Below, piece by piece: positions 6,320 to 34,880 of a DNA stretch of 64,000 bases. The stretch's first letter is position 1; each line of letters opens with the position of its first letter. The DNA comes from an uncultured Anaerolineaceae bacterium (GTDB lineage Bacteria > Chloroflexota > Anaerolineae > Anaerolineales > UBA4823): NCBI GenBank assembly GCA_964385625.1, contig CAYLPS010000004.1, forward strand, positions 6,407 through 70,406. The letters are read 5' to 3'. The notes under the pieces were generated by a model. It ran no database searches. It was given only the letters and a program-made list of their open reading frames with translations, and was not told the DNA's origin. Both the position numbers and the translations under genes were made by a program.

Positions 6320-6520
6320 AACCCCAGGGGAACAATCTTATGCAGCACAACGAAAACCGTCCACCTTGAAAGGGAAAAACCGCCTGGATTATTGGGCACA
6401 GGTGATACCAACCGACATGGGTGAAACCACCTGTGCCGGAACTGGTTCTTGAAAAGTAAAAAGTAGCTCCTAAAGTTGCCAGTGCACTACGGGAGAAGCT
6501 TTTTATGTATGGTTTTTGCT

Positions 6521-9945: not shown

Positions 9946-10012
9946 CCGGAAGGGCGTCCTTCGGGTTTCGGATTTCGCGTTTTAAAAACCCGAAACATGA
10001 AACCCGAAATCC
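9946..10012. repeat. Repeat-rich intergenic region (TTTCGGG / CCCGAAA units around a TTTTAAAAA centre)
   Basis: Sequence ccggaagggcgtccttcgggtttcggatttcgcgttttaaaaacccgaaacatgaaacccgaaatcc, between the helicase-like gene and the primase gene. Confidence 0.5.
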
Positions 10013-10018
10013 ACCCCT

Positions 10019-11851
10019 TCATGTTTTGTCGCTCTTGAACCTGCCAGGCAGGCCGCCACCCATCAAAATCCAGGCCTGGGCTGCCGGCCCACGCGCCCCT
10101 TTGCGCTCGACCAGGTCAATCAACCCATCCCGGCGCATCCGTTCCACCAGGCGATCCACCAGGTCACGGCGGTTGCTGTCCGTCATACTCAAAGCAATGG
10201 CCAGCTCGCGAGTGGACAGGCCGGCCGGTTTCTGGCGCAGGACACGGATGGTCTTGGCTTCCAGGTCATCATCTTCGCTGGCACGGCCGGCGTCTGCGAT
10301 CATCCGGTGCAGGCTGGCGCGCATCGCCTCGGTAATCACCTGGGCCTTTGCCCAGTGCTCCATGGTGACGGTGACAGTCCCGGTGTGAGAGGCGTTTGCC
10401 CAATCGGTTGTGGCCAGTAGCAGGGCTATTTTCATTGCCAGGGCGTGAAAGCGGCCATAGTTGGCGTAGAATTTCTCGAGCACCAGTTTCTGGCGCATTA
10501 GCTCCCACAACCCACTGTGGTAAGCATCCCAGCTCTCCCACACTCCCCTGGCCAGTGCCGCCTGCAGCGCCGCTGCGTTCTGGATTTCACCCAGGCCCGT
10601 TTCTTGCGGCTGAGGCAATATCTCCAATGCCAGGTCATGCAAGGAACTGATCAGCCCATGAGGGGTCTCAACCTGCGGTGGGTAGAAGACCCGCCAGGGT
10701 GGCACATCCGGCGTGATAAAGCCGACACGGGCAAACAGACCGTTGCCCCAATACGCCCGGTTATTGATATGCACGCGCATCGCGGAAGGTGTGGTAGAGC
10801 CACAAATGGTCAAATAAGCGTTATGGATGGTCTGGCGGCCGCGGATAATCGTGGAGGCAGCGGTCAGTTTCTTGGGACAATCGAACAACCTCAACACCTG
10901 ATTGAGTAAATCGGACGTGTACTTCTGGTCAAACGCTTCCAGCAGGGCAGCCGCTTCGTCGATCAGCCAGACACGCTGCGCTGCAAAAGGGCGTTCACGG
11001 CGCCAATCTTCCTGATCGTTCAGTTCCCAGGAGGCGAACGTATCAGGCTGGCGACCGGTCAGCTCGCTGATCAGGCTTTGCGGGGTGATCCCCACTGGCA
11101 GCATGAACCGCTCCAGGCCTGCCTGTTCCAGGATATAGCGAGCGAGGTCCAGCGCAGTGGTTTTGGCATACAGCGTCGAATGGGCCACAATCAAGCCATA
11201 AAAGTTGGAGTACAGGCTGGTGTTCGACACGCGCAAGAACACCCGCCTGGCGATGGCGGTGGCAAGGAGCGCCAGGCCTAAGATCAGGTGAAACAACCGT
11301 GGGCTCATGGGAGCCGCCTGGCAGGCAAAATCCATATAGGCACCCAACCAGCCGCCAATGCCATCGATCCCTCTGACCAGCTTCTCAGGATAACGAGCCG
11401 AAGCAGGCAGTTCAGGCACATCCGTCAGCATGCTCAGTTCCTGGGCCTTGGTTTCTGCTTTGAACTCATCCTCGTCTTCGGCAAGCGGGGCGGAAAGAAC
11501 CTCTGCTCGAATTTCGTTGGCATCGTCGCGACTGGCAATCAGCTCTTCAAATATTTCCACTGCGCTGCGCCCATTGCGCCGGGCAATAATCTCCCGAGCC
11601 AGTCCATTCCAGGGCTCAACCAGGTTCACTGCATCAGGCACATGCTCCCCCGCAATCAAACGGGCGATGTGACGTGCCCCTGCGTTTGCGGTATAATTTG
11701 AATAGCTACCGGCACGGTTTTCCGTGTCCTCTGAATTGGGCGCCTGCGACAAGGCGCCCAGTTTGTTTTCTTCCATGGGCATCTCCTGCTTGAGTTCAGC
11801 CAGCCTGGCCAGGCTCAGGTTCCGTGCGGTTCTGGTTTTCAACCTCCGCAT
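10019..11851 (-). CDS. Helicase/loader-like replication protein (DUF3987-like, tentative) with C-terminal winged helix
   Basis: 610 aa with a deviant P-loop-like VAHSTLYAKTTAL, Walker-B-like WLIDEAA, and C-terminal STRELAIALSM...LVERMRRDGLI. Lies directly upstream of the primase. Confidence 0.45.
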   Translation of the reverse strand: MRRLKTRTARNLSLARLAELKQEMPMEENKLGALSQAPNSEDTENRAGSYSNYTANAGARHIARLIAGEHVPDAVNLVEPWNGLAREIIARRNGRSAVEIFEELIASRDDANEIRAEVLSAPLAEDEDEFKAETKAQELSMLTDVPELPASARYPEKLVRGIDGIGGWLGAYMDFACQAAPMSPRLFHLILGLALLATAIARRVFLRVSNTSLYSNFYGLIVAHSTLYAKTTALDLARYILEQAGLERFMLPVGITPQSLISELTGRQPDTFASWELNDQEDWRRERPFAAQRVWLIDEAAALLEAFDQKYTSDLLNQVLRLFDCPKKLTAASTIIRGRQTIHNAYLTICGSTTPSAMRVHINNRAYWGNGLFARVGFITPDVPPWRVFYPPQVETPHGLISSLHDLALEILPQPQETGLGEIQNAAALQAALARGVWESWDAYHSGLWELMRQKLVLEKFYANYGRFHALAMKIALLLATTDWANASHTGTVTVTMEHWAKAQVITEAMRASLHRMIADAGRASEDDDLEAKTIRVLRQKPAGLSTRELAIALSMTDSNRRDLVDRLVERMRRDGLIDLVERKGARGPAAQAWILMGGGLPGRFKSDKT

Positions 11852-13472: not shown

Positions 13473-14126
13473 ATGGAATTTGAGCGCTTGTTGGAGCTGG
13501 TTGGCGATGAACCGGTCTTTGAGACCGCCCTGCTGTTGGCTGGCAAGGTCAACCCAGATATCGTGCGCCTGCAGCTCACCCGCTGGACGAATAGCGGGCG
13601 GGTGTATCAACTGCGTCGCGGCCTGTACGCCATCGCCCCGCCCTATCAAAAAGTCAAGCCGCACCCCTTCCTGATTGCCAACCGCATGCGGCGCGCCTCC
13701 TATGTCAGCGGGCAGTCGGCCCTGGCTTTTTACGGGCTGATCCCCGATACTGTGCAGCTCACCCTCAGCATCACTACCGGCCGCCCAGAGCGTTTAGAAA
13801 CGCCGCTGGGCGTTTTTGAGTTCCGCCACGTCAAACCCGAGCTGCTGCGCGGCTATCGCATGCTGGCGCTGCACGGCCAAAAAGCCCCAGAGCAACAGGC
13901 CCTGGTAGCCACACCCGAAAAGGCCCTGCTGGACCTGGTGTATTTACAGCCCGGCGGTGATACCCCATCTTACCTGCACGAGCTGCGCCTACAAAACCTG
14001 GAGCGGCTGGATCTTGACGAGCTGCGCCGCCAGGCTGAAACCTTCCATACCCCCAAACTGCGCCGGGCCGTCAAGGCCATTACCAGCCTGGCGCACAGCG
14101 AAACCCAGGAGTATGAAACATTATGA
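13473..14126 (+). CDS. abiEi: AbiEi-family antitoxin (type IV TA / abortive infection)
   Basis: N-terminal winged helix (LQLTRWTNSGRVYQLRRGLYAI), C-terminal AbiEi-type domain, and ATGA overlap with the downstream AbiEii gene. Confidence 0.85.
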   Translation: MEFERLLELVGDEPVFETALLLAGKVNPDIVRLQLTRWTNSGRVYQLRRGLYAIAPPYQKVKPHPFLIANRMRRASYVSGQSALAFYGLIPDTVQLTLSITTGRPERLETPLGVFEFRHVKPELLRGYRMLALHGQKAPEQQALVATPEKALLDLVYLQPGGDTPSYLHELRLQNLERLDLDELRRQAETFHTPKLRRAVKAITSLAHSETQEYETL

Positions 14127-14929
14127 GAGAGCACCTGGCTGAACTGGTTCGGCAGACTGCCACGCCCGCCCAAGGCCGCAACCTGGCAAGAGAATACCTG
14201 CAGGCCCGCATCCTGGCTGCGTTGCAGCGCGCCGGGGCGATGATCCCGCTGGCTTTTCATGGCGGCACCGCCCTGCGCTTTCTATATGCCCACGGGCGTT
14301 ACTCTGAAGATTTGGACTTCGCCCTGGAAGGCGACCGCGGCAGCTACGATTTTCGCGGCTACCTGCAAGCAATTCGAGCCGAGTTGACGCCGGAGGGTTA
14401 CCCGGTTGAGCTCAAGGTCAGCGATCAAAAGACCGTCCACAGCGCCTTCGTGCGCTTCCCCGGCCTGTTGTACGATCTGGGGCTGTCTGGCCAGCAAAGA
14501 GAAGTCTTGGCCGTGAAAATCGAAGTGGACACCAACCCACCCGCCGGCGCCGGGGTGGCGACCACGGTCGTGCGCCGCTTTGTGGTGCTCCAGCTTCAGC
14601 ACCACGATAAGCCCTCGCTGCTCTCAGGCAAGCTGCACGCCATCTTGCAGCGTTCTTACACCAAGGGCCGCGACCTTTACGACCTGCTCTGGTATCTCAG
14701 CGACCCCGCCTGGCCGCCGCCGAACCTGACCCTGCTTAACAATGCCCTGGCGCAAACCGGCTGGCAAGGCGAGATATTGACAGCGATCAACTGGCGAAAC
14801 CAGGTGCGCCAGCGCCTGCGCCGCCTGGATTGGGAGAACATCCAGGCGGACGTGCGCCCGTTCATAGAATCGGGGTTTGACTTGAGTTTATTGAGCCTGG
14901 AAAACCTGGAACGGGTGTTGGGAGAATAG
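14123..14929 (+). CDS. abiEii: AbiEii/AbiGii-family nucleotidyltransferase toxin
   Basis: LAFHGGTALRFLY...RYSEDLDFAL nucleotidyltransferase signature; 268 aa. Confidence 0.9.
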   Translation: MREHLAELVRQTATPAQGRNLAREYLQARILAALQRAGAMIPLAFHGGTALRFLYAHGRYSEDLDFALEGDRGSYDFRGYLQAIRAELTPEGYPVELKVSDQKTVHSAFVRFPGLLYDLGLSGQQREVLAVKIEVDTNPPAGAGVATTVVRRFVVLQLQHHDKPSLLSGKLHAILQRSYTKGRDLYDLLWYLSDPAWPPPNLTLLNNALAQTGWQGEILTAINWRNQVRQRLRRLDWENIQADVRPFIESGFDLSLLSLENLERVLGE

Positions 14930-14933
14930 TGGA

Positions 14934-17681
14934 ATGCGCAAAATTTCCGAAGCTGAGACTCGCAAAAAGTTGATCGACCCTGCCCTGGAAAGAGCAGGAT
15001 GGAATCTGAAGAACCATGCCCAGGTCGGTTTGGAAATTCCAGTGGATGGGTATGACAAAGAGCCCTGGAATGGAGTCACCGATTACTGTCTCTACCGGGC
15101 AAATGGTGAAGTGATCGCTGTGGTAGAAGCTAAACGTACCAGCCATGACCCGCGCCTGGCACAGCAGCAAGCCGAGCATTATGTAACCGAAATCACCAAA
15201 CACCAGCGCTTTCAGCCCTTTGCCTTCCTGACAAACGGAACAGATATCTATTTCCTGGAAAAAGGCCTGGCTCCAAAGCGCCTGGTTTATGGCTTTTTCT
15301 CGCCCGACGATCTGGAACGCTTGCTCTTCTTGCGGCAGCAGCAAAAGCCTCTCAGCAGCATTGCAATTGATAATACCATCACTGATCGCGCTTACCAGCA
15401 TGAAGCGATTCGTCGGGTGTGTGAAGCCTTCGACGCGGGCAAACGTAAAGCTTTGCTTGTAATGGCAACAGGCACCGGCAAAACCCGGACAACCATGTCC
15501 ATTATTGATGTTTTTCTGCGCGCCAACCAGGCGCGCACGATCTTATTTGTCGCTGACCGCGACGCTCTGGTTGAGCAAGCGAAAACCGATGGTTTTGAGA
15601 AGTTTTTGCCGCATGAACCATGCGATCGGATTTACTCCCATACGATCGATAAAACCAAACGTCTGTACGCAGTAACCTTGCAAACGCTTAGCCAATGCTT
15701 TGAACAATTTTCGCCTGCCTTTTTCGATTTGATCATTTTTGATGAGGTTCACCGCTCCATTTTCAACAAGTTCAATGAGGTGCTTCAGTATTTTGATGCA
15801 CGCATGATCGGCCTGACCGCCACCCCAGCGCAGTTCATTGATCGGGATACGTTTCGTGTTTTTGAATGCGGCGATGGCAAGCCCACCTTTTTGTACCCTT
15901 ACAAACAGGCCATCGAAGAAGGCTTCCTAGTGGATTACACGCTTTACGCCGCGCAAACCCGTTTTCAGCGCTCCGGCATTCGCGGCGTTGACTTGAGCGA
16001 CGAAGAGCGGAATTTACTGATCGAGCAGGGTTTTGATCCTGATGAAATTGATTTCGAAGGTACTCAGCTCGAAAAGGATGTCAGCAACAAGGATACCCTG
16101 CGCAAGCAGTGGGAAGAGATCATGGATAAATGCTACCGTGACCAATCCGGTCAACTACCGGGTAAGACCATCATTTTTGCCATAACCCAAGAACATGCCC
16201 TGCGCTTGCAAGAAATCTTCGACCAGATGTATCCCCAGTTCCCGAACCTGGTGCGCGTGATAACGCATAAATCTGAATATCGCGGCCAATTGGTCAAGAA
16301 TTTCAAACAGGAAGATATGCCGCGGATTGCCATTTCGGTGGACATGCTCGATACCGGCATTGATGTCCCCGAAGTAGTCAACCTAGTATTCATGAAACCT
16401 GTTCAGTCACGCATCAAGCTGGAGCAGATGGTCGGACGTGGCACCCGCTCGAACGCGGCATGCAGGTTTCCCGAGCGCCTGCCCGGCGGCGTTAAACGCG
16501 AGTTCCAGGTGATTGATTTCTGGGAAAATGATTTCAATAAAGCCCCTGAAGTAGCCCAGGCCCAAGAACTGCCCGTGCTGGTCTCGCTATTTAACACCCG
16601 CCTGCGATTGTTAGAAACTTATCTCGGAGAACAGGATGATCCTGGCTGCCAGCAGACGATTGGCGATCTACGCGCTCAGATTGGGCGCATTCCCAAGGAA
16701 TCTTTCTCTGTGCGGCGCGTGCTTCCCGAGATCGAAGAAGCCTTCACCGATGCATTTTGGGGCTATTTGGTCTCTACGAAAATCGATTTTCTACGCCTCA
16801 AGGTTGGTCCCCTGCTGCGTTTAGCCCCAGACGTGGATGTGCCGGCAGAAACCTTCCACCACAAAATTGAACGGTTGAAGTTAGCTCAACGCACAGGAAG
16901 AGACCCTGCCGATCTTGTGCAATCTATTGTTGAGGATGCTGCCAGTCTGCCCGATTTTGTCATTCAAGATCCGGCGCTTTCTCCACTAGTCAAACAATGT
17001 AAGCCCAACAATTTGACGCAAGCTTCACCCAGCGAACTCAGCCAGATTGCGGCTGGCCTGGCGCCGCAGATGAAGAACAAGCGCCGGGTGAGCAGTTTCT
17101 TGACCCTGGATCTGCCTGATCGCATTGATCTGAGCGGTTACATCTTGCTAACCCAAAGCGGTGAGCAAGTGTATGTCAAGGAATACCGCCAACGGGTGGA
17201 GACGCGTATCCTGGCAATCGTTGAAAACCACCCCGCAATGCAAGCCATTGGCCGCGGCGAAACCCCCGATGATTTGCTACTGCTCGATCTGGAACGAACC
17301 TTGCAAGCTGAGCTGGCTGCAAGCGAGTTGGAGTTGACGCCGCAAAATATCCGCCGCGCTTATGGTGTACAAGTGGAAAGTTTCCTGGACTTTCTGCGCC
17401 TGATATTAGCTGTGGATGCCATTCCTGGGTATCGTGAGATCGTTCAACATCAATTCCAACAATTCATCAGTGCTCACCTGTATAATGCCAATCAAATCCG
17501 CTTCTTGCGCGCCGTACAAAGCGTATTTCTACAAAAACGCCGCCTGGCTTTGCCCGATTTCTATGCTGAACCGCTCACCAATTTTGGCGCCGATGCCGTT
17601 GATCGCTGGTTTAGCCAGGACGAAGTGTCTGAAGTCCTGGAATTTACTGAAAAACTTACCCTTGCTGATGGTCCAAAATGA
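14934..17681 (+). CDS. hsdR: Type I restriction enzyme R subunit
   Basis: N-terminal nuclease motif (DYCLY...AVVEAKR), helicase motif I MATGTGKTRT, motif II IIFDEVHRS, and an EcoEI-R-type C-terminal domain. Confidence 0.9.
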   Translation: MRKISEAETRKKLIDPALERAGWNLKNHAQVGLEIPVDGYDKEPWNGVTDYCLYRANGEVIAVVEAKRTSHDPRLAQQQAEHYVTEITKHQRFQPFAFLTNGTDIYFLEKGLAPKRLVYGFFSPDDLERLLFLRQQQKPLSSIAIDNTITDRAYQHEAIRRVCEAFDAGKRKALLVMATGTGKTRTTMSIIDVFLRANQARTILFVADRDALVEQAKTDGFEKFLPHEPCDRIYSHTIDKTKRLYAVTLQTLSQCFEQFSPAFFDLIIFDEVHRSIFNKFNEVLQYFDARMIGLTATPAQFIDRDTFRVFECGDGKPTFLYPYKQAIEEGFLVDYTLYAAQTRFQRSGIRGVDLSDEERNLLIEQGFDPDEIDFEGTQLEKDVSNKDTLRKQWEEIMDKCYRDQSGQLPGKTIIFAITQEHALRLQEIFDQMYPQFPNLVRVITHKSEYRGQLVKNFKQEDMPRIAISVDMLDTGIDVPEVVNLVFMKPVQSRIKLEQMVGRGTRSNAACRFPERLPGGVKREFQVIDFWENDFNKAPEVAQAQELPVLVSLFNTRLRLLETYLGEQDDPGCQQTIGDLRAQIGRIPKESFSVRRVLPEIEEAFTDAFWGYLVSTKIDFLRLKVGPLLRLAPDVDVPAETFHHKIERLKLAQRTGRDPADLVQSIVEDAASLPDFVIQDPALSPLVKQCKPNNLTQASPSELSQIAAGLAPQMKNKRRVSSFLTLDLPDRIDLSGYILLTQSGEQVYVKEYRQRVETRILAIVENHPAMQAIGRGETPDDLLLLDLERTLQAELAASELELTPQNIRRAYGVQVESFLDFLRLILAVDAIPGYREIVQHQFQQFISAHLYNANQIRFLRAVQSVFLQKRRLALPDFYAEPLTNFGADAVDRWFSQDEVSEVLEFTEKLTLADGPK

Positions 17682-18541
17682 TCGAATTTATTGAATCTCA
17701 CCGTGGAAAACCAATCTGCCAGACCTTTAAAGACCTGGCTGCCCGGACGTGGAATTATCTGGCTGAGGGCGCCAGGATCGGTATGCCTCCGGGTGAGGAA
17801 ACATTGACCGATGAAAACCTGATGGCGATCCTGGCTCTGCATGCAAGCCAGGTGGCAATTTGGCGTTTCACCAAGCACAGGGAAAGCCAGGTTGGTGCAG
17901 ATTGGGAATGGTGGTTCGGCAACCCGACAAACGGCTGGTTTGGAATGCGAGTGCAGGCTAAAAAGCTTGACCTGAAACAATTCTCCTCTTATTACGGGGT
18001 TGACCACCCCGATCACACCAACCAACAGATTGATGCATTGATTCGGGAAAGCCAAAGTGCAGGTCTGTTTCCTGCTTACTGCCTCTATAACACCCATTTA
18101 TCTCCCAGACTCCCCGAATGGGGCTGCAGCATAACATCTGCTGTGGCCATGCGGAGCGCCTTAGGACAGCCCCAGGCGCGCCGTTCGCACGCTGTTGCGT
18201 TTAAAGATATTGAAAAATATTTGTTCCCCTGGCATCGCCTGGTTTGCCATCCTGAAACAGGCCACCCCGACGGCGGTGGTTTTCCTGACCTGGTGCGCAA
18301 TTCAATTTTGCCTGGCCTTCCATCTAGTCTGCAGGGAGAGGTGCCGGAGACTCACCCCGAGTTGCCCGATTACGCCAGAAAACTGGTGGGAGAAGTGACT
18401 GCTTCTTTGGAAAATAAAATGATCCCTGCTGTGGATACCATGGAACTTGAGTTTCCCACCCAATATCTGGTTGTTGTGTCAGACCAACCCATATTTCCGC
18501 GATTTATCATTGATGAGATGAAACCTTTTCGGGAGAAATAA
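17678..18541 (+). CDS. Uncharacterised 287-aa protein embedded in the hsd operon; possible PD-(D/E)xK-like fold
   Basis: ATGA overlap with the hsdR stop; its stop is 3 nt before the hsdM ATG. Pattern is E40/E41, D75 (GADWEWWF), Q93-A-K95 (MRVQAKK). No family recognised. Confidence 0.6.
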   Translation: MIEFIESHRGKPICQTFKDLAARTWNYLAEGARIGMPPGEETLTDENLMAILALHASQVAIWRFTKHRESQVGADWEWWFGNPTNGWFGMRVQAKKLDLKQFSSYYGVDHPDHTNQQIDALIRESQSAGLFPAYCLYNTHLSPRLPEWGCSITSAVAMRSALGQPQARRSHAVAFKDIEKYLFPWHRLVCHPETGHPDGGGFPDLVRNSILPGLPSSLQGEVPETHPELPDYARKLVGEVTASLENKMIPAVDTMELEFPTQYLVVVSDQPIFPRFIIDEMKPFREK

Positions 18542-18544
18542 ACG

Positions 18545-20254
18545 ATGCTAACGGACCCCAAACTTCGCAGCCAGGTTGATTCTCTGTGGGACAAGTTCTG
18601 GTCAGGCGGCCTGACGAACCCCCTCGACGCCATCGAGCAGTTTTCTTACCTGCTTTTTCTCAAACGCATGGACGACGCCGAAAGCAGGCGCGAGAAACTG
18701 GCCAAGAAGCTGGGGCAAGCTTACACTCCTGGCCTGGCGCCAGATCTGCGTTGGGGCTATTGGACAAACCTGAAGGCTGATGAAGCGCTGCGCCACCTGA
18801 AAGAAGTGATCTTCCCCGATCTGCGCAAGCTGGGTGCAGCCGGCAGCTCGTTTGAGCGTTACATGGCCAACGCTGAATGCAAGATCAGCAAACCATCCTT
18901 GCTCATCGAAGCCTGTAAGCTGATTGACCAGATGGAAATCAGCCAGCAGAACCAGGATGTGCAGGGCGATCTATATGAATACCTGCTCAGCAAGCTCAAC
19001 ACTGCCGGCCGCAACGGCCAGTTCCGCACGCCGCGCCATATCATCCGCATGATGGTGCAGATGTTGGCGCCGCAGCCGATGGAGCGCATCGGCGACCTGG
19101 CCGGCGGCACCTGCGGTTTTCCGGTCAATGCGCACCAGTATATTTTGGAGACTCACACCTCGCCTGAGATTTTGGAATATGACGAGGCTGGCCTGCCGCA
19201 CAACTTGATTGGCGATTTGCTCAAGCCGGAAGAACGCACTTTCATGGCTTCCGCCAGGTACTTGCGCGCCTTCGATAATGACGCCGGCATGACCATGCTG
19301 CGGATCGGCTCCATGAACTTGATCTTGCATGGGATCGAATCGCCGCAGTTTTTTTACATGGACACGCTCTCCAAAGCCTTCATCGACGAGCGCGAGTACG
19401 ATGTGATCCTGATGAATCCGCCTTTCAAGGGAGCGGTGGACAAAGGCGATGTCAACCCCAGCCTGCCCGGCGACACGACCAAGACTGAGCTGCTCTTCCT
19501 GCACCTGATCCTGCGCGCCCTGGACATGGGTGGGCGCTGTGCGGTGATTGTGCCGGACGGGGTGTTGTTTGGCTCCAGCAAGGCGCATGTGGCGCTGCGT
19601 AAAAAGATCATTGAGGAAAACCGCCTGGACGGGGTCGTTTCCATGCCTCCGGGCGTGTTCAGGCCCTATGCCGGGGTTTCAACGGCCATTCTGTTCTTCA
19701 CCCGCGGCGCCAAAACTGAGCGTATCTGGTTCTATGACATGGCGCATGATGGGTTTTCGCTGGACGACAAGCGCCTGCCTGTGGGGGAGAACGATATTCC
19801 AGATGTACTGCTGTGCTGGCAGAAGCGCGGCGACAATGCCTTCCAGCAAGCCCGTCAGCAGCGATTGGACGAACTCAAAGCCCAGGTTGCGCCGCTGAAG
19901 GTCGAGCAATTGAGTCTGCACGCTGAGATCAACCGCCTGACCTTCGAACAGGCCATTGCCCCAGAGGGAGATAGCCCGTTGACGGCTGAACTGGCCGCAG
20001 CACAAGCCCGTCTTGTCGACCTTGATGCCCACATTGCCCCCTTGCAGGCCGAAATGGATCAACTCTCGCGCCAGTTCTGGGTTAACAAAGCTCAGGTCAA
20101 GGCCAACAAGTATGATTTGTCCACCAGCCGCTATCGTCAATTTGAGATAGACGAAACATATTATGAGAAACCACAGATCACTCTAAAGCGTATGAGAAAA
20201 CTGGAGGAAATTTGTTTGGACACTCTGGATGAACTTCAGGATTACAGCAGATGA
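18545..20254 (+). CDS. hsdM: Type I R-M N6-adenine DNA methyltransferase subunit
   Basis: HsdM N-terminal domain, AdoMet motif DLAGGTCGF, catalytic NPPF (LMNPPFKG), and a C-terminal coiled coil. Confidence 0.9.
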   Translation: MLTDPKLRSQVDSLWDKFWSGGLTNPLDAIEQFSYLLFLKRMDDAESRREKLAKKLGQAYTPGLAPDLRWGYWTNLKADEALRHLKEVIFPDLRKLGAAGSSFERYMANAECKISKPSLLIEACKLIDQMEISQQNQDVQGDLYEYLLSKLNTAGRNGQFRTPRHIIRMMVQMLAPQPMERIGDLAGGTCGFPVNAHQYILETHTSPEILEYDEAGLPHNLIGDLLKPEERTFMASARYLRAFDNDAGMTMLRIGSMNLILHGIESPQFFYMDTLSKAFIDEREYDVILMNPPFKGAVDKGDVNPSLPGDTTKTELLFLHLILRALDMGGRCAVIVPDGVLFGSSKAHVALRKKIIEENRLDGVVSMPPGVFRPYAGVSTAILFFTRGAKTERIWFYDMAHDGFSLDDKRLPVGENDIPDVLLCWQKRGDNAFQQARQQRLDELKAQVAPLKVEQLSLHAEINRLTFEQAIAPEGDSPLTAELAAAQARLVDLDAHIAPLQAEMDQLSRQFWVNKAQVKANKYDLSTSRYRQFEIDETYYEKPQITLKRMRKLEEICLDTLDELQDYSR

Positions 20255-20784
20255 AAGAGGTCTCTCTTTCTGATGTCAGCCGAATTAACCCACCCAAGCG
20301 GGCTGGCTTATCACGTGATCTGTTGTGTTCATTCGTGCCCATGGAATATGTAGACGATATTTCAGGCACCATCACCCAGACATCAGTTCGTTCAGTTGGA
20401 GAAGTTGAAAAAGGATATACACCGTTTCTAAATGGCGATGTAATTTTTGCAAAAATTACACCTTGCATGGAAAATGGCAAATGTGCCATAGCCCAAGGAA
20501 TGATGAACGGCGTTGGTTTTGGCTCGACAGAATTTCATGTTCTGCGCGCAGAACATGATGTTCTGCCAGAGTGGATTTATTACTTCTTGCGCCAGGAAAA
20601 AATCAGACAACAAGCAGCGCGCTGGTTTCGTGGTACCGCTGGTCAGCAACGTGTTCCAAGCGACTTTCTCGATCAATTGAAGCTCCCCCTCCCAACTATT
20701 CCAGAACAGCGCCGCCTCGCCGCCATCCTGGCCAAAGCCGACCGCCTGCGCAGCCTGCGCCGTTACGCCAATGCGCTGGGATAG
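20251..20784 (+). CDS. hsdS: Type I R-M specificity subunit, proximal half (TRD1 + part of central conserved region), ends at in-frame TAG
   Basis: ATGA overlap with hsdM. TRD-like region followed by LPLPTIPEQRRLAAILAKADRLRSL. TAG at 20782-20784. Confidence 0.85.
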   Translation: MKEVSLSDVSRINPPKRAGLSRDLLCSFVPMEYVDDISGTITQTSVRSVGEVEKGYTPFLNGDVIFAKITPCMENGKCAIAQGMMNGVGFGSTEFHVLRAEHDVLPEWIYYFLRQEKIRQQAARWFRGTAGQQRVPSDFLDQLKLPLPTIPEQRRLAAILAKADRLRSLRRYANALG

Positions 20785-20805
20785 ACCTACCTGCAGTCTG
20801 TATTT

Positions 20806-21429
20806 ATGGAAATGTTTGGGAATGTTGCTATAAATCAAACGAAATGGGAAGTGGAGGCTTTGGTAAATTTATGCACCAATGTTACTGATGGAACACACGA
20901 TACACCAGAACGGGTGCCAGTAGGGGTGCCTTTTATCACATCAAAGAATATTCGACCTTATGAAATTGATTTAACAAATCTAGAATTTGTATCGATGGAA
21001 ACACATCAAGAAATCATAAAAAGGTGCAATCCTAAATCAGGTGATATTCTGTATACAAATATTGGTGTGAACGTGGGTAATGCTGTTGCAAATCGACTAG
21101 GTTTTTCCTTTAGCTTAAAAAACGTTGCCCTCTTCCAATTGAACACCGCAAAGCTAGACCCATACTATATGGAATCCCTTTTGAATAACCCCGGCTTCAA
21201 AGAAAGTAGGTTACAATTTTCTTCGGTTGGTGGGGCTCAAAAATTTATGTCGTTGGATGTATTACGAGAAATGCCAATACCTATCCCGCCACTTGATTTA
21301 CAAGAGCGCTTCGCTACTGTGGTGCAGTGTTACGAGCGCCTGCATTCCCAGCAGCGTGAGGCCAGTCGTCAGGCAGAGTTGCTGTTCCAGGGCCTGCTTG
21401 CCGATGCATTCAATATGTGTCAATATTAA
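20806..21429 (+). CDS. hsdS: Type I R-M specificity subunit, distal half (TRD2 + C-terminal conserved region)
   Basis: Same reading frame as 20251-20784. Begins inside the central conserved FxEMFG motif and ends PIPPLDLQERF...LLFQGLLADAF. AT-rich. Confidence 0.8.
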   Translation: MEMFGNVAINQTKWEVEALVNLCTNVTDGTHDTPERVPVGVPFITSKNIRPYEIDLTNLEFVSMETHQEIIKRCNPKSGDILYTNIGVNVGNAVANRLGFSFSLKNVALFQLNTAKLDPYYMESLLNNPGFKESRLQFSSVGGAQKFMSLDVLREMPIPIPPLDLQERFATVVQCYERLHSQQREASRQAELLFQGLLADAFNMCQY

Positions 21430-21435
21430 CCACCT

Positions 21436-21915
21436 ATGAATGAGAAAACCTTTCATTTAGCCATACGCTTCTCCGATAATTTATTTTCTATTGGGGATGT
21501 GGTGGTTAAACACAATGAAGTATTTTACCAAAAAGGATACGTGTGGTTTGGGAAGATGGGTCAAACGATCTCTCAAACCAGAATGGATTTATTGAATCGC
21601 CAAATTGCACAGAGTATTCCCACATTCGTTTACCTAGTAAAAGGCAATCGAAAAAAATCCACCTTCTATCGCGCGGACCTTATCGCCATTACCAAAGAAC
21701 TACCTATAGGCGAAGAAGTTGCAATTCCCAGTTATTACCAAAATAATAATCTTCTTCAATACATGAAAACATGGGTCAGAATTTCGGAAATTGTTGCAAT
21801 AGAAATATCAGTAATTTCACATTTGCAGGCAATTGGTTCAGTATTTCCACTTCAAGAAACCCTTATTAGAAGCTCGTCCGGATATTTTCTGGTTCGCGAG
21901 GCAAAAAATATTTAA
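21436..21915 (+). CDS. Hypothetical protein (159 aa)
   Basis: Starts 7 nt after the hsdS stop. AT-rich and beta-rich-looking sequence; no family recognised. Confidence 0.5.
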   Translation: MNEKTFHLAIRFSDNLFSIGDVVVKHNEVFYQKGYVWFGKMGQTISQTRMDLLNRQIAQSIPTFVYLVKGNRKKSTFYRADLIAITKELPIGEEVAIPSYYQNNNLLQYMKTWVRISEIVAIEISVISHLQAIGSVFPLQETLIRSSSGYFLVREAKNI

Positions 21916-21944
21916 CATTGAGAGCCTCGTTACCGCGAAGCGAA

Positions 21945-22064
21945 TTTCCATGGAGTACCATTCCTTTGTTGGAAGAAAACTTCCCAATGATGGCATCCCA
22001 GGTGCTACAGGCTAAAAAGCTAGTCCAAGGCCTCCTCAGCTCGGCATTTACGGGGGACATGTGA
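21945..22064 (+). pseudogene. Possible relic of an HsdS C-terminal conserved region
   Basis: Translates to FPWSTIPLLEENFPMMASQVLQAKKLVQGLLSSAFTGDM*, which parallels the genuine HsdS end (PIPPLDLQERF...LLFQGLLADAF). By-eye similarity only. Confidence 0.3.
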
Positions 22065-22744
22065 TTGCGTTTAAATACGGGCAGGTTGCCGAAAGTCAGG
22101 CCATCAACGCGTTCATTTACCTCTGTTTTGAGGAATTCGAAGAAAGCGCACAGCAAAAATTCGTCAAACTGTTTCGCCAACAGCCGTATGACCAGGCGCA
22201 GGTTATGCACACCTTTCGCGAATTGATCCTGGGCGCTTACTTGCATCGCGCTGGTTTTCGGGTGCTCTACGCGCAACATTTACAAGGCAAAACCCCGGAT
22301 TGGGTGATCGTAAACGAGCAATTGATTCCTCTGGCAATTGTAGAGTTGGTGAATTTTCATATTGATCGCCAGACGGAAATGGCCCTTCAAAAACAAAGCC
22401 AGACCAGGCCGGCAGTGGTGGGTTATTGGCGCGATGGGAATGTGGATAATATAGAGCGCCTGAGGTATCGCCTGCAAGAGAAGGCTCAGGTTTACCAGGA
22501 TTTAGTGACCAAGCTGGCCTATGTCATTGCAGTGTTTGGTGAGTTTGAGGCGGCATTAGATGTGGATGATATCGTGGCTTGTCTGAACGGAGAACGGGAG
22601 GGGCTGTTTGATCAATATCCGCATGTCAGTGGAGTGTTATTTTTCGACGAAAACGGCGGCAAGTACCGCTTTCAATATTTTGAGAACCCCGCCAATCCAC
22701 GAAAACTGGAAATACCTGCAGGAATATTTTCAAGAGGCTCTTGA
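22061..22744 (+). CDS. Hypothetical protein (227 aa, GTG start)
   Basis: ORF in the co-directional array. KTPDWVIV...(13 aa)...AIVELVN is reminiscent of a PD-(D/E)xK core but lacks the Lys. No family recognised. Confidence 0.5.
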   Translation: MIAFKYGQVAESQAINAFIYLCFEEFEESAQQKFVKLFRQQPYDQAQVMHTFRELILGAYLHRAGFRVLYAQHLQGKTPDWVIVNEQLIPLAIVELVNFHIDRQTEMALQKQSQTRPAVVGYWRDGNVDNIERLRYRLQEKAQVYQDLVTKLAYVIAVFGEFEAALDVDDIVACLNGEREGLFDQYPHVSGVLFFDENGGKYRFQYFENPANPRKLEIPAGIFSRGS

Positions 22745-22757
22745 TGCAAAGGAATGA

Positions 22758-23717
22758 ATGATGAGTCCAGAAGAACAAATCTCTTTTACTTTGATGGAAA
22801 ATGGCCTGGATTTTATCCTGCGATCGTTGGAGTATCTAACCGACGACCCAGACACTCGCTCTTTAAAATACGCTGTTCTCCATTTGCATTCTGGAATTGA
22901 GCTGATCCTAAAAGAGCGCTTGCGCAGGGAACACTGGGCGTTGGTCTTCGAGAAACCTGATGAAGCCAATATGGCCAAATACGAGGCGGGTGATTTCGTC
23001 AGTGTTCAATGGAAGACCTGCCTGAGCAGACTTCAAGGCATCTGCAAAGTTGATATACCAGAGGATCAGCGCAAATTATTAGAGGAACTCAAGAAAAAGC
23101 GAAACCGCCTTGAACATTTTGGTATTGTGGATACTGTTTTAGCGGTCAAAGGCTCGACAGTCCCGGTACTCGCGTTTGCATTAGATTTCATCAACGATGA
23201 AATTGGCATAGATCAGCTCTCGGAATCGGAGGTGGCTCTCTTGCAACAAATACGGAGAGCTTTGGGGAATTTCCAGGATTTCGTCTCGGAACGAACCAGA
23301 TCTATAGCAGCGCAATTGGACCCTTACGGCAAGAGCATTGTCACCTGCCCGCGCTGCATGCAGGATGCAATGGTTATTGATGATGGCGCTCTATGCTACT
23401 TTTGTGGTCACCGGCATGATGATATGGAAGCCGCTATTCAAGAATTTGTTCATGATGTGCTAGAAATTGATTGGCATACCGTCGCGCGGGGAGGGGAATG
23501 GCCAGTCTACACATGCCCAGGTTGTGGAATAGATACTCTGGTTGACTTGAAAGAAGCCGAACAAGAGGATAAGCCACGTTTCATTTGCTTTTATTGTGGT
23601 AATCACTGGGACTGGGGGCACTTAATCTTCTGCTCGAATTGCGGTCAGCCTTATGAGCCAAACGGGATGGCAGCTTGCGACGATTGTTTTGAATGGAGTT
23701 TGCGTCGAAACGATTGA
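22758..23717 (+). CDS. HEPN-like domain protein fused to three CxxC...CxxC zinc ribbons (319 aa)
   Basis: The helical N-terminal ~130 aa ends with R115-N-R-L-E-H120 (Rx4H with RN, nt 23100-23117). C-terminal half carries CPRC..CYFC, CPGC..CFYC and CSNC..CDDC. Confidence 0.6.
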   Translation: MMSPEEQISFTLMENGLDFILRSLEYLTDDPDTRSLKYAVLHLHSGIELILKERLRREHWALVFEKPDEANMAKYEAGDFVSVQWKTCLSRLQGICKVDIPEDQRKLLEELKKKRNRLEHFGIVDTVLAVKGSTVPVLAFALDFINDEIGIDQLSESEVALLQQIRRALGNFQDFVSERTRSIAAQLDPYGKSIVTCPRCMQDAMVIDDGALCYFCGHRHDDMEAAIQEFVHDVLEIDWHTVARGGEWPVYTCPGCGIDTLVDLKEAEQEDKPRFICFYCGNHWDWGHLIFCSNCGQPYEPNGMAACDDCFEWSLRRND

Positions 23718-24271
23718 TGAGCGCTTTAGATTCCTTACTCCACCAAGCCCTTCGCTCCACCTGGTCGAAAGCTCCCGGCGAGAAAGCACGCCGTTACATC
23801 GGCAAGTTCTATGCCCTGGAGCGGATCGGGGATCGGATCACCGGTAAGGTAGAAGGCAATCATGGCACCTATACTGTCTCAATCCGAGTAGATGATGGGC
23901 ATGTGTCATCCACCTGCGGATGCTATATTGGCAAGCATGGCTACTGTCACCACTGTGAAGCCCTGGCGCACACCTTTTTCCAAACTCCCGAAGCCTTTGT
24001 TGAAGTGATTTCAAAAGATAAGGCTGAACTCTCTGCATTGGGCGATCTGCCCGACTATATCAAGACCGCCACGTTGGAATCCCTGCTGGCTGAGTTGAAG
24101 GCCAAGGGCATCACCCAGAAAGCCTTTGCGGAAAGCATTGGCATGAACCCCCGTCATTTGACCGCCGTCAAATCCAGCGAGCTGCGCAACCATTACTTCA
24201 ACGAATTAGGGGCCCTCAAGCTGGCTTGCCTGTGGATGTTGGACCACATCAGCAATGAAAAAGACGCATAG
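23717..24271 (+). CDS. SWIM zinc-finger protein with C-terminal XRE-type HTH (184 aa from ATG 23717)
   Basis: CGCYIGKHGYCHH = CxCx7CxH SWIM motif. C-terminal GITQKAFAESIGMNPRHLTAVKS is an HTH. TGATG stop/start overlap with the upstream HEPN-like gene. Confidence 0.65.
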   Translation: MSALDSLLHQALRSTWSKAPGEKARRYIGKFYALERIGDRITGKVEGNHGTYTVSIRVDDGHVSSTCGCYIGKHGYCHHCEALAHTFFQTPEAFVEVISKDKAELSALGDLPDYIKTATLESLLAELKAKGITQKAFAESIGMNPRHLTAVKSSELRNHYFNELGALKLACLWMLDHISNEKDA

Positions 24272-24276
24272 CTCGC

Positions 24277-25770
24277 TCAGAGCGTATCCAACACCGTCCT
24301 GATTACATACTGTTTATCCCCAATCCGGTCAAAGAAGCACTCCTCAAGCGTGTTCGTGGCGATCAGGTAATGAGCCTGCGCCGGCTGCGCCAACAAGCCC
24401 TCGGCGCGCTGCTGGTCGGCGGGCGTGAAGCCCAGCTCCACAAACAACGCCTGGCGGGCCGGTGCGAGGTTCCAGCCACGGCTGTCGGCGCGGATGCTGA
24501 TGACGATGAGACGGCACGCCGAGTCGTTGGTAAAGCGCTCAATGGCTTTTGCCCGTTTGCGTTTTGTCGTTTCGCCGGTGATCCAGGGGGCCTGGAACGC
24601 GCCGGCAATGTCACCCACGATCTCGCGGTGATAGGCAAAAATCACCAGCTTGTCCGGTTTGTTTTTCAGAAACGCCCGGACCCAGGCGAGCGCGGCATCG
24701 AACTTGCCCCAGGCTAATTCCAGGCGCGGTGCGGTGTGCCAGCCCACCCAGTCGTCATCCTTCGAAGCCGCCACTTCCGTGGAGTTGTAATCCTCCCGGT
24801 TGTCAATGCGCACACGATGGTATTGGCGGGGCATCGTCTCCGGGTCCAGCCTGGGCCGGCGCAGCAGGCAGCGGGTGCGCAACAGCCGGCCAAGCTCGTC
24901 CAGGCGGGCGGCGCCGTTTTCTTGCCCCAGGCAGTAGCGCTGGAAGAAACCGGCGCGACCGCCGAATTTATCCAACCGCCCCATCACATTCAATTGGCTG
25001 ATCAGCTCCGCCGGGCCGTTGAGGATTGGGGTGGGCGTGAGCAGCAGCCGGTAGTGGATGCCCTGTGCCAGGGCCAGGGAGCGCCTGGTGCGCTGGGCAT
25101 CCCAACTCTTCACGTAATGCGCCTCGTCCAGGATCAGGCCATAAGGGCGGCGGTTCAAATGTTGGATCACGGCGCCAGCGGCATCCAGCGTTTCGTAGTT
25201 GACCAGCACCAGGTCGGCCGCCGCGTCCACGGCGGCGTCTTTGCAAGTGGGCAGCTTTTTACCGGGCAGGTATCGTTCGATGGCGCGATGCCAGGCCTGG
25301 CTGCGGTTCGCCGGGCAGACGATCCAGGCCGGAAAAGCATTGGCGGCTTGCACAGCGCCCAGGGCGATGGCCATCCGATCTTGCTCATCGTCATCGGCGA
25401 TAAAACAGCGCATGGCCTTGAGGGTATACTGCACGCCGGCAACTTGAAAAGGCGTCAGGCCTGGCAATGGTGACTTGAAGAGTGATTCGGGTTCCAGGGC
25501 GTGGCTGGCATCGTAACGGCTGCTTTCGAAACGTGCCATCAGCTCTTCTGCCGGCAGCTTGAAAGCAGGGTGCACGGCCATGCGATATTGATTGGCCAGC
25601 GACAGCACCGATTGAATAACACCGGGTGAAGGCCAGGCCAGCCAGCCGCGCTGCTGGTAAAAGTCAAAATGCGCGCTCGGGATACGCCGGACTGCGTTTC
25701 TGATAGCGTCATTCTTGGGGAAATCAATCACGATCTCCCCCGCTTGATCAAGATAAACTCTTCCAGGCAT
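24277..25770 (-). CDS. SNF2-family helicase-like protein with degenerate motif I
   Basis: Q-motif-like LTPFQVAGVQY, motif II LILDEAHYVK, and a helicase C-terminal domain. The GLGKT position reads DDDEQDRM. Confidence 0.75.
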   Translation of the reverse strand: MPGRVYLDQAGEIVIDFPKNDAIRNAVRRIPSAHFDFYQQRGWLAWPSPGVIQSVLSLANQYRMAVHPAFKLPAEELMARFESSRYDASHALEPESLFKSPLPGLTPFQVAGVQYTLKAMRCFIADDDEQDRMAIALGAVQAANAFPAWIVCPANRSQAWHRAIERYLPGKKLPTCKDAAVDAAADLVLVNYETLDAAGAVIQHLNRRPYGLILDEAHYVKSWDAQRTRRSLALAQGIHYRLLLTPTPILNGPAELISQLNVMGRLDKFGGRAGFFQRYCLGQENGAARLDELGRLLRTRCLLRRPRLDPETMPRQYHRVRIDNREDYNSTEVAASKDDDWVGWHTAPRLELAWGKFDAALAWVRAFLKNKPDKLVIFAYHREIVGDIAGAFQAPWITGETTKRKRAKAIERFTNDSACRLIVISIRADSRGWNLAPARQALFVELGFTPADQQRAEGLLAQPAQAHYLIATNTLEECFFDRIGDKQYVIRTVLDTL

Positions 25771-25772
25771 GC

Positions 25773-26714
25773 TTAATCCTCTAACTTGGCTACGGCTTCT
25801 TCCAGATCGCGCTCGCCAGGCGTGGTATAGATCCGGGTGGTGTTCAGACTGTTATGGCCGAGCAGCGCGGCGACTTTTTCAAGCGTTACGCCCTCATCCA
25901 GCAACGCCTTGGCAAAACTGTGCCTGAGCGTGTGGGGCGATACGTTTTGTAAGCCAGCGGCGGTCGCGGCGCGTTCCACAGCCCGCTGCACCGAGCGCAC
26001 ACCCACCCGCTCTCCCCGCTGGCCAATGAACAAAGCCTCGCCAGATCCTTCAGGCCGCACCGCCAACCACTCGTTCAGAAGCTGGCGCGCCGGGCCGTTC
26101 AAGGGAATAGAACGCTGTTTTTGACCCTTGCCGGAGCGCACCACCAGGCTGCCCTTGCGCTCGCCGATCTGCACATCGTTCAGTTGCAGGGCGCACAGCT
26201 CGCCAACACGCAAGCCGGTGTTCAGCAGCGTTAGCGCCATCGCGGCGTCCCGCAGGCGCATCACCCACAAGCGTGGGTAGCGCTGCCTGGCCAGGCGCAG
26301 ATCGTTTTCAACGGCCCGCACCAGCGCCGCCCGCTGGCGTTTGTCCAGCCATTTCGGGGCCAGGGGCACGCTTTCCACGTTGCGGATATTGAGCGCCGGG
26401 TTTTGGGTCAGCTTGCCGGTTTGGACTGCCCAGTGCCCGTAAGCGACCAACGCCGCCAGCTTGCGATTGATGGTGTGCGGCCGAGCGCCGGCTTCGCTCA
26501 GAGATTGACGATAGGCGCGCAGTTCACTCGCCGACCAGTCAAGCAGGCGAAACGGCTCGCCTTTGGCGTGGGCTGACCAGGCGGCATAGATACGGATGTC
26601 GCTGATATAACCACGGATAGTGACCGGAGAGCGATCTTGCTCGGTGAGGTACCCGGCAAAAGCCTGCAAGTCCAGGCCATCGTCATATTCGGTTAAGTGT
26701 GATGTAGTTGTCAT
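25773..26714 (-). CDS. Tyrosine recombinase (XerC/XerD-like)
   Basis: N-terminal SAM-like domain. Catalytic region has ARxxxxxLxxxGLRVGE, HTLRHSFA, LLGHNSLNTTRIYT. Confidence 0.9.
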   Translation of the reverse strand: MTTTSHLTEYDDGLDLQAFAGYLTEQDRSPVTIRGYISDIRIYAAWSAHAKGEPFRLLDWSASELRAYRQSLSEAGARPHTINRKLAALVAYGHWAVQTGKLTQNPALNIRNVESVPLAPKWLDKRQRAALVRAVENDLRLARQRYPRLWVMRLRDAAMALTLLNTGLRVGELCALQLNDVQIGERKGSLVVRSGKGQKQRSIPLNGPARQLLNEWLAVRPEGSGEALFIGQRGERVGVRSVQRAVERAATAAGLQNVSPHTLRHSFAKALLDEGVTLEKVAALLGHNSLNTTRIYTTPGERDLEEAVAKLED

Positions 26715-34787: not shown

Positions 34788-34807
34788 TAAGACACGCGAA
34801 CTGCGTG

Positions 34808-34880
34808 TGCCCCCACCCAGATTCGAACTGGGGTTTTAGCCTTGAAAGGGCTGCGTCCTGGTCCCCTAGACGATGGGGGC
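34808..34880 (-). tRNA. tRNA-Glu (anticodon UUC)
   Basis: GCCCCCATCGTCTAGGGGACCAGGACGCAGCCCTTTCAAGGCTAAAACCCCAGTTCGAATCTGGGTGGGGGCA has a 7-bp acceptor stem, D arm GTCT/GGAC, anticodon loop CTTTCAA, and T arm CCCAG-TTCGAAT-CTGGG. CCA is not encoded. Confidence 0.9.

Follow-up and report, generated by a model that had tools for sequence, protein, structure and literature searches.

Two open reading frames (ORFs) in the genome of an uncultured Anaerolineaceae bacterium, orf159 and orf227, are neighbours in a 10.8-kb array of defence genes, and they raise the question of what their products are and whether they act together with the two genes that follow, orf319 and orf184. We examined them in a stretch of 64,000 nucleotides (nt) of contig CAYLPS010000004.1, called the window here, with positions counted from its first letter. 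An earlier interpretation made from the letters alone (the sequence-only reading) had left two options: either the four genes form a cassette, or they are independent cargo. The explanation that we prefer, with a probability of about 0.6, is that the array is not one system but several separable modules, for defence and accessory functions, stacked in the cargo region of an integrative element; orf159 would be the reader of a type I restriction-modification (R-M) module, orf227 a nuclease-fold accessory and orf319 a HEPN defence gene. This explanation is built on family membership, folds, gene neighbourhoods, mosaic breakpoints and purifying selection. The data show the modular assignment, the mosaic history and the purifying selection; mechanisms and catalytic activity are inferred.

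Distribution of the four genes

The sequence-only reading had proposed to look in other genomes for orf159 (21436–21915), orf227 (22061–22744), orf319 (22758–23717) and orf184 (23717–24271), all on the + strand, as a group. The four do not travel together: the window is the only locus that has them all. A metagenome scan added 80 loci with relatives of orf159, and the counts given here use 82 non-redundant loci; for orf227, 26 loci were fetched from elsewhere. In these 82 and 26 independent loci, orf159 was never found with orf227, orf319 or orf184. A sister element, locus L024, holds three of the four genes (all except orf159), and the other loci hold one each.

In L024, the products of orf227, orf319 and orf184 are 83%, 86% and 92% identical to those of the window. 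By blastn, positions 13890–14934 of the window are 87.6% identical in nt sequence to L024; the homology ends at 14934, there is no match between 14934 and 22008, and at 22008 the homology resumes and runs to 30741 at 88.6%. Because L024 breaks off at 14934 and resumes at 22008, orf159 belongs to a variable R-M slot (14935–22007), whereas orf227 opens the conserved backbone. In L024 this slot is occupied by an MmeI-like type IIG enzyme and a methylase in place of hsdR to orf159.

A defence cassette of all four genes is not borne out by the synteny or by this breakpoint, and we give it almost no credence. The four genes are indeed co-directional and tightly spaced in the window, but orf159 is absent from the company of the others in the loci counted above, and the L024 breakpoint, at 22007/22008, falls between orf159 and orf227. 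Moreover, the two are separated by a decayed hsdS relic and by 145 non-coding nt, and their GC content differs sharply (0.369 for orf159, compared with 0.47–0.53). The co-occurrence data, the comparison with L024 and the solitary homologues of orf319 all favour the other option, independent cargo.

Family, fold and pocket of orf159

The sequence-only reading could name no family for orf159, and in this it was mistaken. The protein of 159 amino acids (aa) matches the Pfam family PF24405 ('Pua-like') with 42.6 bits, the gathering cut-off being 27; residues 10–128 align with profile positions 3–123 of 176. It also covers positions 1–121 of the 486-position NCBIfam model 'anti-phage phosphoesterase' (DS9_1). 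We found 296 homologues at 52–68% identity, mostly from bacterial metagenome-assembled genomes or unassigned metagenome contigs. Among the homologues listed, 120 of 120 carry PF24405, and nearly all are stand-alone proteins of 152–200 aa. The mean column identity is 58% in an alignment of 32 sequences from many environments, and the ratio of non-synonymous to synonymous substitution rates (dN/dS) of the PUA gene between loci L035 and L037 is 0.05. A tblastn search of 72,556 plasmids (PLSDB) gave no match to orf159 or orf227. A scan of IMG/VR gave no orf159 locus and one orf227 locus, so neither is a typical phage gene.

The AlphaFold 2 model of orf159 has a predicted local distance difference test score (pLDDT) of 90.8 and a predicted template modelling score (pTM) of 0.87. 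The top PDB matches found by Foldseek are the N6-methyladenine (m6A) readers of the YTH type (YTHDF2, YTHDC1 and YTHDC2), the ASCH protein af2351 and a DUF55/EVE domain, with template modelling (TM) scores of 0.35–0.47 and E-values of 7e-3 or weaker. This gives moderate support to a PUA-like superfamily fold, predicted as a compact alpha/beta pseudo-barrel like that of the YTH, ASCH and EVE readers.

Two preprints have reported that the N-terminal PUA-like domain of MisA/PUA-Cal binds N6-methyl-dAMP (m6dAMP), which in the Metis (PUA-Cal-HAD) system comes from phage degradation of Dam-methylated host DNA (bioRxiv 10.1101/2025.11.05.686725; 10.64898/2026.01.15.699771). The AMP/m6dAMP pocket of MisA is formed by F9, H23, W35, W38, Y100 and Y101, together with R8, R10 and K40 (bioRxiv 10.64898/2026.01.15.699771). 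For comparison, MisA-like proteins were recovered from viral contigs by the motif VWWGWW and aligned with the orf159 family. R11, F12, D14, H26, V36, W37, G39, P98, Y100 and Y101 (orf159 numbering) were invariant in both groups, and R11, F12, H26, W37, Y100 and Y101 are the equivalents of the MisA pocket residues R8, F9, H23, W35, Y100 and Y101. At the position of K40 the alignment is ambiguous. Motif II reads VWFGK in the orf159 family and is three residues shorter than the VWWGWWAK of MisA.

orf159 is thus close to MisA/PUA-Cal in several respects. Both fall into one Pfam family and one NCBIfam model, whose N-terminus orf159 matches; the identity to the MisA-like domain is about 25%; the R-F, H, VW.G and PxYY motifs occur in both; and orf159 is likewise linked to N6-adenine methylation. 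It differs in being a single domain of 159 aa with no calcineurin-like (Calcineurin-CE) phosphoesterase domain, and Pfam scans of all eleven proteins of the array found no HAD phosphatase (MisB) domain. It differs also in its place in a type I R-M operon. orf159 is a sensor-domain-only relative of MisA; since it has no effector domain and sits in such an operon, its output must go via other proteins.

orf159 among restriction-modification genes

In six loci fetched on long contigs for four homologues, the PUA-like gene lies 13–24 nt upstream of hsdM, which is followed by hsdS; in three of the six, hsdR is found further downstream. Among the 82 non-redundant loci, 52 have type I genes. hsdM begins within 200 nt downstream of the PUA gene in 30 loci and 200–1300 nt downstream in six, hsdS lies within 200 nt upstream, as in the window, in five, and another type I gene is present in 11. 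The five loci with hsdS upstream contain the closest relatives of orf159 (62–76% identity). Many of the 30 loci with no type I match are short contigs, and the five of them that were sampled all adjoin other R-M genes, four being beside an N6_N4 or D12 adenine methylase: L066 has an N6_N4 methylase and ResIII, L050 an N6_N4 methylase, L095/96 a D12 adenine methylase and L098 an EcoRV nuclease gene.

Such an association is known in outline, since members of the PUA-like family had already been noted inside R-M operons that encode N6-adenine methylases (bioRxiv 10.64898/2026.01.15.699771), and stand-alone EVE and ASCH proteins in type I R-M operons were described in 2020 (Bell et al., PMC7641849). 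In those cases, too, a small modified-base-reader domain is encoded in one operon with hsdM, hsdS and hsdR; however, the orf159 family is PF24405 and not EVE or ASCH, and the EVE cases are mostly archaeal.

Its family and fold, the residues of its pocket and the genes around it make orf159 most plausibly an accessory reader of N6-methyladenine or m6dAMP in the R-M module; its ligand and partners we infer from these. It would be an accessory of the type I module consisting of a stand-alone PUA-like sensor domain with no effector, and it would bind the N6-methyladenine produced by the methylase encoded with it, be it free, in the form of m6dAMP, or as a base flipped out of DNA. Its effect would be exerted by way of the R-M proteins, for which it would be a regulatory or sensor subunit.

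Alternatively, orf159 might read modified bases in invading DNA and thereby let the type I enzyme restrict phage DNA that is modified. An add-on of this type IV-like kind was proposed for the stand-alone EVE and ASCH proteins (Bell et al. 2020, PMC7641849), whose position beside type I R-M genes speaks for it here as well. It is also in keeping with the promiscuous DNA binding of PUA-Cal, with the missing equivalents of MisA W38 and R10, and with a PLD-like nuclease gene that lies between the PUA gene and hsdM in both loci checked (L039 and L053) of the six with the wider spacing. On the other hand, PF24405 is the family shown to bind a mononucleotide and most of the pocket residues are kept; an adenine methylase is the gene's regular companion, and what this enzyme makes would be the obvious ligand; and restriction triggered by m6A of the self type would be autotoxic. 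We therefore consider this role unlikely and keep to a reader of N6-methyladenine or m6dAMP.

Two further observations were made in these loci. The gene after the PUA-like gene in L039 (3551–4192), L053 (3277–3966) and L056 (6641–7609) encodes a small PLD-like nuclease of the NgoFVII type, in L056 with no hsdM match; the two genes may form a reader–nuclease pair inside type I operons. L051 has an internally deleted PUA remnant of 80 aa upstream of hsdM (2927–3169) and a full PUA gene downstream of hsdS (5989–6465), which gives this locus the look of a transitional form between the two gene orders.

The orf227 family

In the case of orf227 (227 aa), the sequence-only reading was right that no family could be named: there is no match in Pfam, PADLOC, NCBIfam or PHROG. 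A first search gave 212 homologues, and 584 cluster representatives were collected at 50% identity and E-values up to 1e-3. orf227 thereby founds a family whose members, known mostly from uncultured bacteria, are in most cases single-domain proteins some 220 aa long; full-length homologues back the GTG start of orf227. Its dN/dS between the window and L024 is 0.146.

The motif KTPDW...VELVN with no lysine, pointed out in the sequence-only reading, is real and conserved in the family. E54, D80, H100, D102 and K141 are invariant, and E95 and N98 occur in at least 90% of the sequences. The catalytic signature D...(D/E)-x-K is not matched, the third position being V97 (E-L-V-N). The AlphaFold 2 model (pLDDT 85.4, pTM 0.84) has a helix at 45–63, which carries E54, a strand at 67–70, a strand at 81–84 directly after P79-D80, a strand at 90–96 with E95, and then a helix and a strand. 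In the model this order corresponds to the canonical restriction-endonuclease core, alpha-beta-beta-beta-alpha-beta. Many of the best fold matches, although weak, are PD-(D/E)xK proteins (YaeQ, BpuSI, SfsA, NucS, DrdV and Cas4); in BFVD, Foldseek gave weak 'endonuclease-like' matches, and no match in PDB or BFVD had an E-value below 1e-3. With the proteins of this fold (YaeQ, SfsA, NucS, the nuclease domains of BpuSI and DrdV, Cas4) the model has in common the E in helix 1, the PD before strand 2 and the E in strand 3, but it differs from them in having no lysine at (D/E)xK and no sequence-profile link to any named family. The PD...E-x-? core proposed earlier is consistent with the model, though not proven by it.

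The neighbours of orf227 homologues vary. In L001, the homologue (10001–11299) follows hsdS and has an additional C-terminal region of 205 aa with no Pfam match, which is also present in P0364. Three Dehalococcoidia loci (L004, L005 and L026) have it after a fusion of an N6_N4 methylase with Mrr, with an overlap of 4 nt. It comes after a single protein with a DUF3644-HEPN and a restriction endonuclease-like (EC042_2821) part in L008, after an Abi_C HEPN protein, again with a 4-nt overlap, in L015, and before a Schlafen/AlbA_2 gene in L013. The homologues of the remaining loci are alone among housekeeping genes. Rare fusions in the family are to NYN (P0371) and to an XRE/MqsA-type helix-turn-helix (HTH) domain (P0403).

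Based on the model and these contexts, orf227 would be a divergent member of the PD-(D/E)xK fold that probably binds metal through E54, D80 and E95. It is the first gene of the conserved backbone block orf227–orf319–orf184 and, in the family as a whole, a promiscuous 'tail-end' gene: in other genomes it either stands alone or is coupled in translation to the gene that closes an unrelated module (hsdS, a methylase–Mrr fusion or a HEPN gene). Most likely, it would be an autonomous accessory that cuts or binds nucleic acid.

It is also conceivable, though rather improbable, that orf227 is an orphan or accessory restriction endonuclease of type II or a type IV-like one that cuts DNA alone. One database source labels the homologue P0009 'restriction endonuclease', the gene is coupled to the methylase–Mrr fusion in Dehalococcoidia and follows hsdS in L001, and D80 and E95 are at canonical positions. 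However, many homologues stand alone between housekeeping genes and have no methylase close by, which for a sequence-specific type II enzyme would be lethal; in addition, orf227 lacks the catalytic lysine, and none of its structural matches is significant. An autonomous accessory that cuts or binds nucleic acid remains our preferred role for orf227.

orf319, orf184 and a possible three-gene module

The product of orf319 matches PADLOC PDC-S64 (2e-31) and HEC-08 (1.6e-25) as well as DUF3644 (5.3e-26). It has the HEPN motif R115NRLEH120 (Rx4H) and C-terminal zinc-ribbon matches. The proteins of this broad family are about 315 aa long and come from Chloroflexota, Firmicutes and further lineages, with 129 plasmid records; their genes are mostly solitary or come after hsdS with no orf227 or orf184. 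In loci L121–L123, whose operon is of the same lineage as that of the window (HsdM 68%), a 61% identical copy of orf319 directly follows hsdS, and there is no orf227, PUA gene or orf184. HEC-08 was validated as a single-gene defence in which the HEPN histidine is essential (Payne et al. 2024, 10.1101/2024.01.29.577857). With HEC-08/PDC-S64, orf319 has in common the DUF3644-type HEPN domain, the Rx4–6H motif and the C-terminal zinc ribbons, and its homologues are, like the PDC candidates, embedded beside type I R-M genes (L121–L123). orf319 would thus be a HEC-08-like, single-gene HEPN RNase defence. It differs from HEC-08 in that it is followed by a SWIM-HTH gene, one that the other examined homologues of orf319 did not have with them. 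This gene, orf184, encodes a SWIM-type zinc finger (C67xCx8CxH) and a C-terminal HTH, assigned by motif and by a weak HTH_3 match. Among the orf227 and orf319 loci searched, a homologue of orf184 was found only in L024, and tblastn of orf184 found nothing in the 72,556 plasmids.

A nuclease-fold partner or sensor (orf227), a HEPN RNase (orf319) and possibly a SWIM-HTH regulator (orf184) might act as one module, with orf159 separate from it. The trio is intact in L024 at 83–92% aa identity while the R-M module upstream was swapped; its junctions are short, with 13 nt between orf227 and orf319 and a TGATG overlap of orf319 and orf184 at 23717/23717; and relatives of orf227 adjoin RNase-type genes (in L008 DUF3644-HEPN with EC042_2821, in L015 Abi_C HEPN) or, in P0371, are fused to NYN. 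In L114 as well, the orf319 homologue is preceded by a PD-ExK-like ORF. But L024 is a close relative of the same element and so its synteny is not independent evidence, and the partner in L114 has no homology to orf227. Moreover, orf319 homologues mostly do without orf227, one gene is enough for defence by HEC-08, HEPN genes are missing beside most orf227 homologues, and in the loci searched an orf184 homologue was seen in L024 alone. Taken together, we regard a three-gene module as doubtful, and separable genes as the better description.

The ORF in L114 (834–1412, 13 nt upstream of the orf319 homologue) encodes 192 aa with a canonical PD...E-V-K motif. It was tried as a relative of orf227 and rejected (hhalign probability 0.2); the pairing in L114 is therefore analogous and non-homologous.

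Mosaic history of the hsdS region

The sequence-only reading described the array as gap-free. It overlooked an in-frame TAG at 20782–20784, which splits hsdS into ORFs of 177 and 207 aa within the central conserved region (...RRYANALG, stop, TYLQSVFMEMFGN...). The 5' half (20251–20784, + strand; PADLOC Specificity_I 1.4e-60), ending at the TAG, holds the first target recognition domain and part of the central conserved region and is 69% identical to the first half of the uninterrupted HsdS of L121. The 3' half (20806–21429, + strand; also PADLOC Specificity_I), with a GC content of 0.415, holds the second target recognition domain and the C-terminal conserved region and is 60% identical in aa sequence to L035 and L089. 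The TAG is located exactly where the 5' half resembling L121 meets the AT-rich 3' half resembling L035. We rejected a conserved 'split hsdS', as L121 and L035–L037 continue past the site with no stop. Specificity may be defective in this system, or it may work with two half-subunits, the second made by re-initiation at ATG 20806.

The variable slot is a mosaic. Its first part (hsdR, hsdM and the hsdS 5' half) is similar to L001 and L121, with the L121 homology stopping at 20819, while the 3' half of hsdS and orf159 are colinear with L035 (window 20737–21894, 64.5% nt identity) and with L089. The GC content of this second part is 0.37–0.42, compared with about 0.5 around it.

The gap between orf159 and orf227 (21916–22060) was said to hold an hsdS-like relic, and we confirmed this by translation and by a match to the HsdS C-terminus of L001. 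Frame 2 of the 145-nt gap reads ...QAKKLVQGLLSSAFTGDM followed by a stop, a typical HsdS C-terminus. The relic of the hsdS 3' end (22008–22062, + strand; ...VLQAKKLVQGLLSSAFTGDM, stop; tblastn to the L001 HsdS C-terminus) marks the breakpoint on the right side of the variable slot, and it can be aligned with the relic ahead of orf227 in L024. Its TGA overlaps the GTG start of orf227 (GTGA) exactly as the stop of the intact hsdS does in L001. In the arrangement with hsdS ahead of the PUA gene, an hsdS fragment is found downstream of the PUA gene in five loci with enough downstream sequence: 3'-end relics in the window, L035 (two tandem copies, 2033–2179 and 2291–2374), L037 (2090–2209) and L038 (2756–2944), and a fragment of the central region, not the 3' end, in L051 (6578–6991). 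No relic was present within about 1.1 kb downstream of the PUA gene in L079. A search for repeats around orf159 gave no clean direct ones; the hsdS relic has diverged too far.

In the spacer ahead of orf227 in L024 (5974–6343) there is a fragment joined to the hsdS 3' relic that resembles what we take to be the N-terminus of a DUF262/GmrSD protein (...LPHFQRQYAWEKKHW...). It would be a further scar of cargo turnover at the same spot.

The simplest history would begin with an ancestral hsdS–orf227 junction, followed by swaps of R-M modules that recombined at conserved hsdS sequence. One such swap would have brought the AT-rich cassette of the hsdS 3' half and the PUA gene and left the 18-codon hsdS relic ahead of orf227. 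This suggests that accessory genes spread by hitch-hiking on recombination of hsdS half-genes, with hsdS 3' relics as the scars. In this operon lineage, the position downstream of hsdS is a landing hotspot, taken by orf227 in L001, by orf319 in L121 and by the PUA gene in L035–L038, and the window stacks all three of these accessory genes.

Given that the region is a recombination scar, with an hsdS relic, an in-frame hsdS stop and atypical GC content, one or both of orf159 and orf227 could be decaying passengers with no current function. We consider this highly unlikely, for both are full-length when compared with large conserved families, their dN/dS values are 0.05–0.15, and the invariant pocket and active-site residues are intact; they are real, conserved genes.

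Points against the proposed roles

Several observations weigh against our explanation. Any link of orf159 to HsdM, HsdS and HsdR is putative and drawn from gene neighbourhood. The closest relatives of the type I system of the window, L001 and L121, have no PUA gene, so the gene is dispensable for restriction, and the in-frame stop in hsdS means that the R-M module may be impaired. As the equivalents of W38, the ligand-responsive tryptophan of MisA, and of R10 are not conserved in the orf159 family, the ligand could differ from that of MisA. In orf227, the canonical lysine is absent and the invariant K141 lies in a later helix; the Foldseek matches are weak (E-values of at least 1.3e-3 and TM 0.2–0.34; best E 1.3e-3, TM 0.29–0.34), and a PDB sequence-profile search with the family gave a chance match only. 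Finally, three adjacencies to HEPN genes (window/L024, L008 and L015) and one NYN fusion hint at a tie to RNase effectors. An autonomous orf227 does not explain these, and such a tie is a live alternative.

Layout of the array and its surroundings

According to the ORF table, every ORF from 13473 to 24271 is on the + strand, as the sequence-only reading had claimed, and the junctions that it listed (14126/14123, 14929/14934, 17681/17678, 18541/18545, 20254/20251, 21429/21436, 22744/22758 and 23717/23717) were found as given. Its label of a defence array is reasonable as well, AbiE, type I R-M and a HEC-08/PDC-S64-like HEPN gene all being present.

At the left end are the genes of the AbiEi antitoxin/regulator (13473–14126; PADLOC AbiEi 3.1e-57), which is common to L024, and of the AbiEii nucleotidyltransferase toxin (14123–14929; Pfam AbiEii 2.2e-27, PADLOC 2.9e-66), the dN/dS of which compared with L024 is 0.134. 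The variable slot opens with the type I restriction subunit HsdR (14934–17681; Pfam ResIII, HSDR_N and EcoEI_R_C), 64% identical in aa sequence to L001 and 53–56% to L121/L122. HsdM (18545–20254; Pfam N6_Mtase 4.4e-48 and HsdM_N), the N6-adenine DNA methyltransferase, is 77% identical to L001 and 68% to L121. Between hsdR and hsdM, with overlaps or gaps of 4 nt at both ends, is embedded the gene of a DUF6615 protein (17678–18541; PF20320, 56.6 bits), which has no match in PADLOC, NCBIfam or PHROG. L001 carries a different ORF of 276 aa in this place and L121 none; the hsdR/hsdM junction is a second variable 'embedding' slot of this operon lineage. The window has embedded genes at two slots, hsdR/hsdM (DUF6615) and after hsdS, and it thereby resembles, in its gene arrangement, other type I operons with accessory genes in or beside hsd in the same orientation (PrrC in EcoprrI and the 'guilt-by-embedding' candidates).

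The array is flanked by the gene of a DUF3987 protein (10019–11851, − strand) on one side. On the other are an SNF2-family helicase gene (24277–26714, − strand), convergent with orf184 and 6 nt from it, and a tyrosine integrase gene. A tRNA-Glu gene lies at 34807–34880. The backbone common to the window and L024 extends over 8.7 kb and includes a ParM-like gene in L024. Probably this entire region makes up the cargo bay of an integrative element.

Scans for promoters and terminators gave hits at the level of shuffled sequence and did not define transcription units. On 20000–24600, Rfam gave a chance microRNA match to a palindrome and nothing else; this 19-nt palindrome of perfect spacing (inverted repeat I1, 20527–20566) lies inside hsdS, and the match (mir-567, E 0.006) is far under the gathering score and probably meaningless.

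Meaning of the locus

These results do not overturn current views; they refine the annotation of a defence island. orf159 is a newly topical but already known kind of protein, and orf227 belongs to an unnamed family, which is added to the candidates at the tail of defence operons. More generally, stand-alone PUA-like proteins of the MisA type might be a widespread fourth, regulatory component of R-M systems and, separately, orf227 might be a new nuclease-fold partner of HEPN/NYN RNase effectors; we put both forward only tentatively. The locus shows a route by which accessory genes spread, through swaps of hsdS half-genes. An effector-less and highly conserved Metis sensor domain of 160 aa exists, most often directly ahead of hsdM, and this makes it testable whether classical R-M systems listen to, or buffer, the danger signals of methylated nucleotides.

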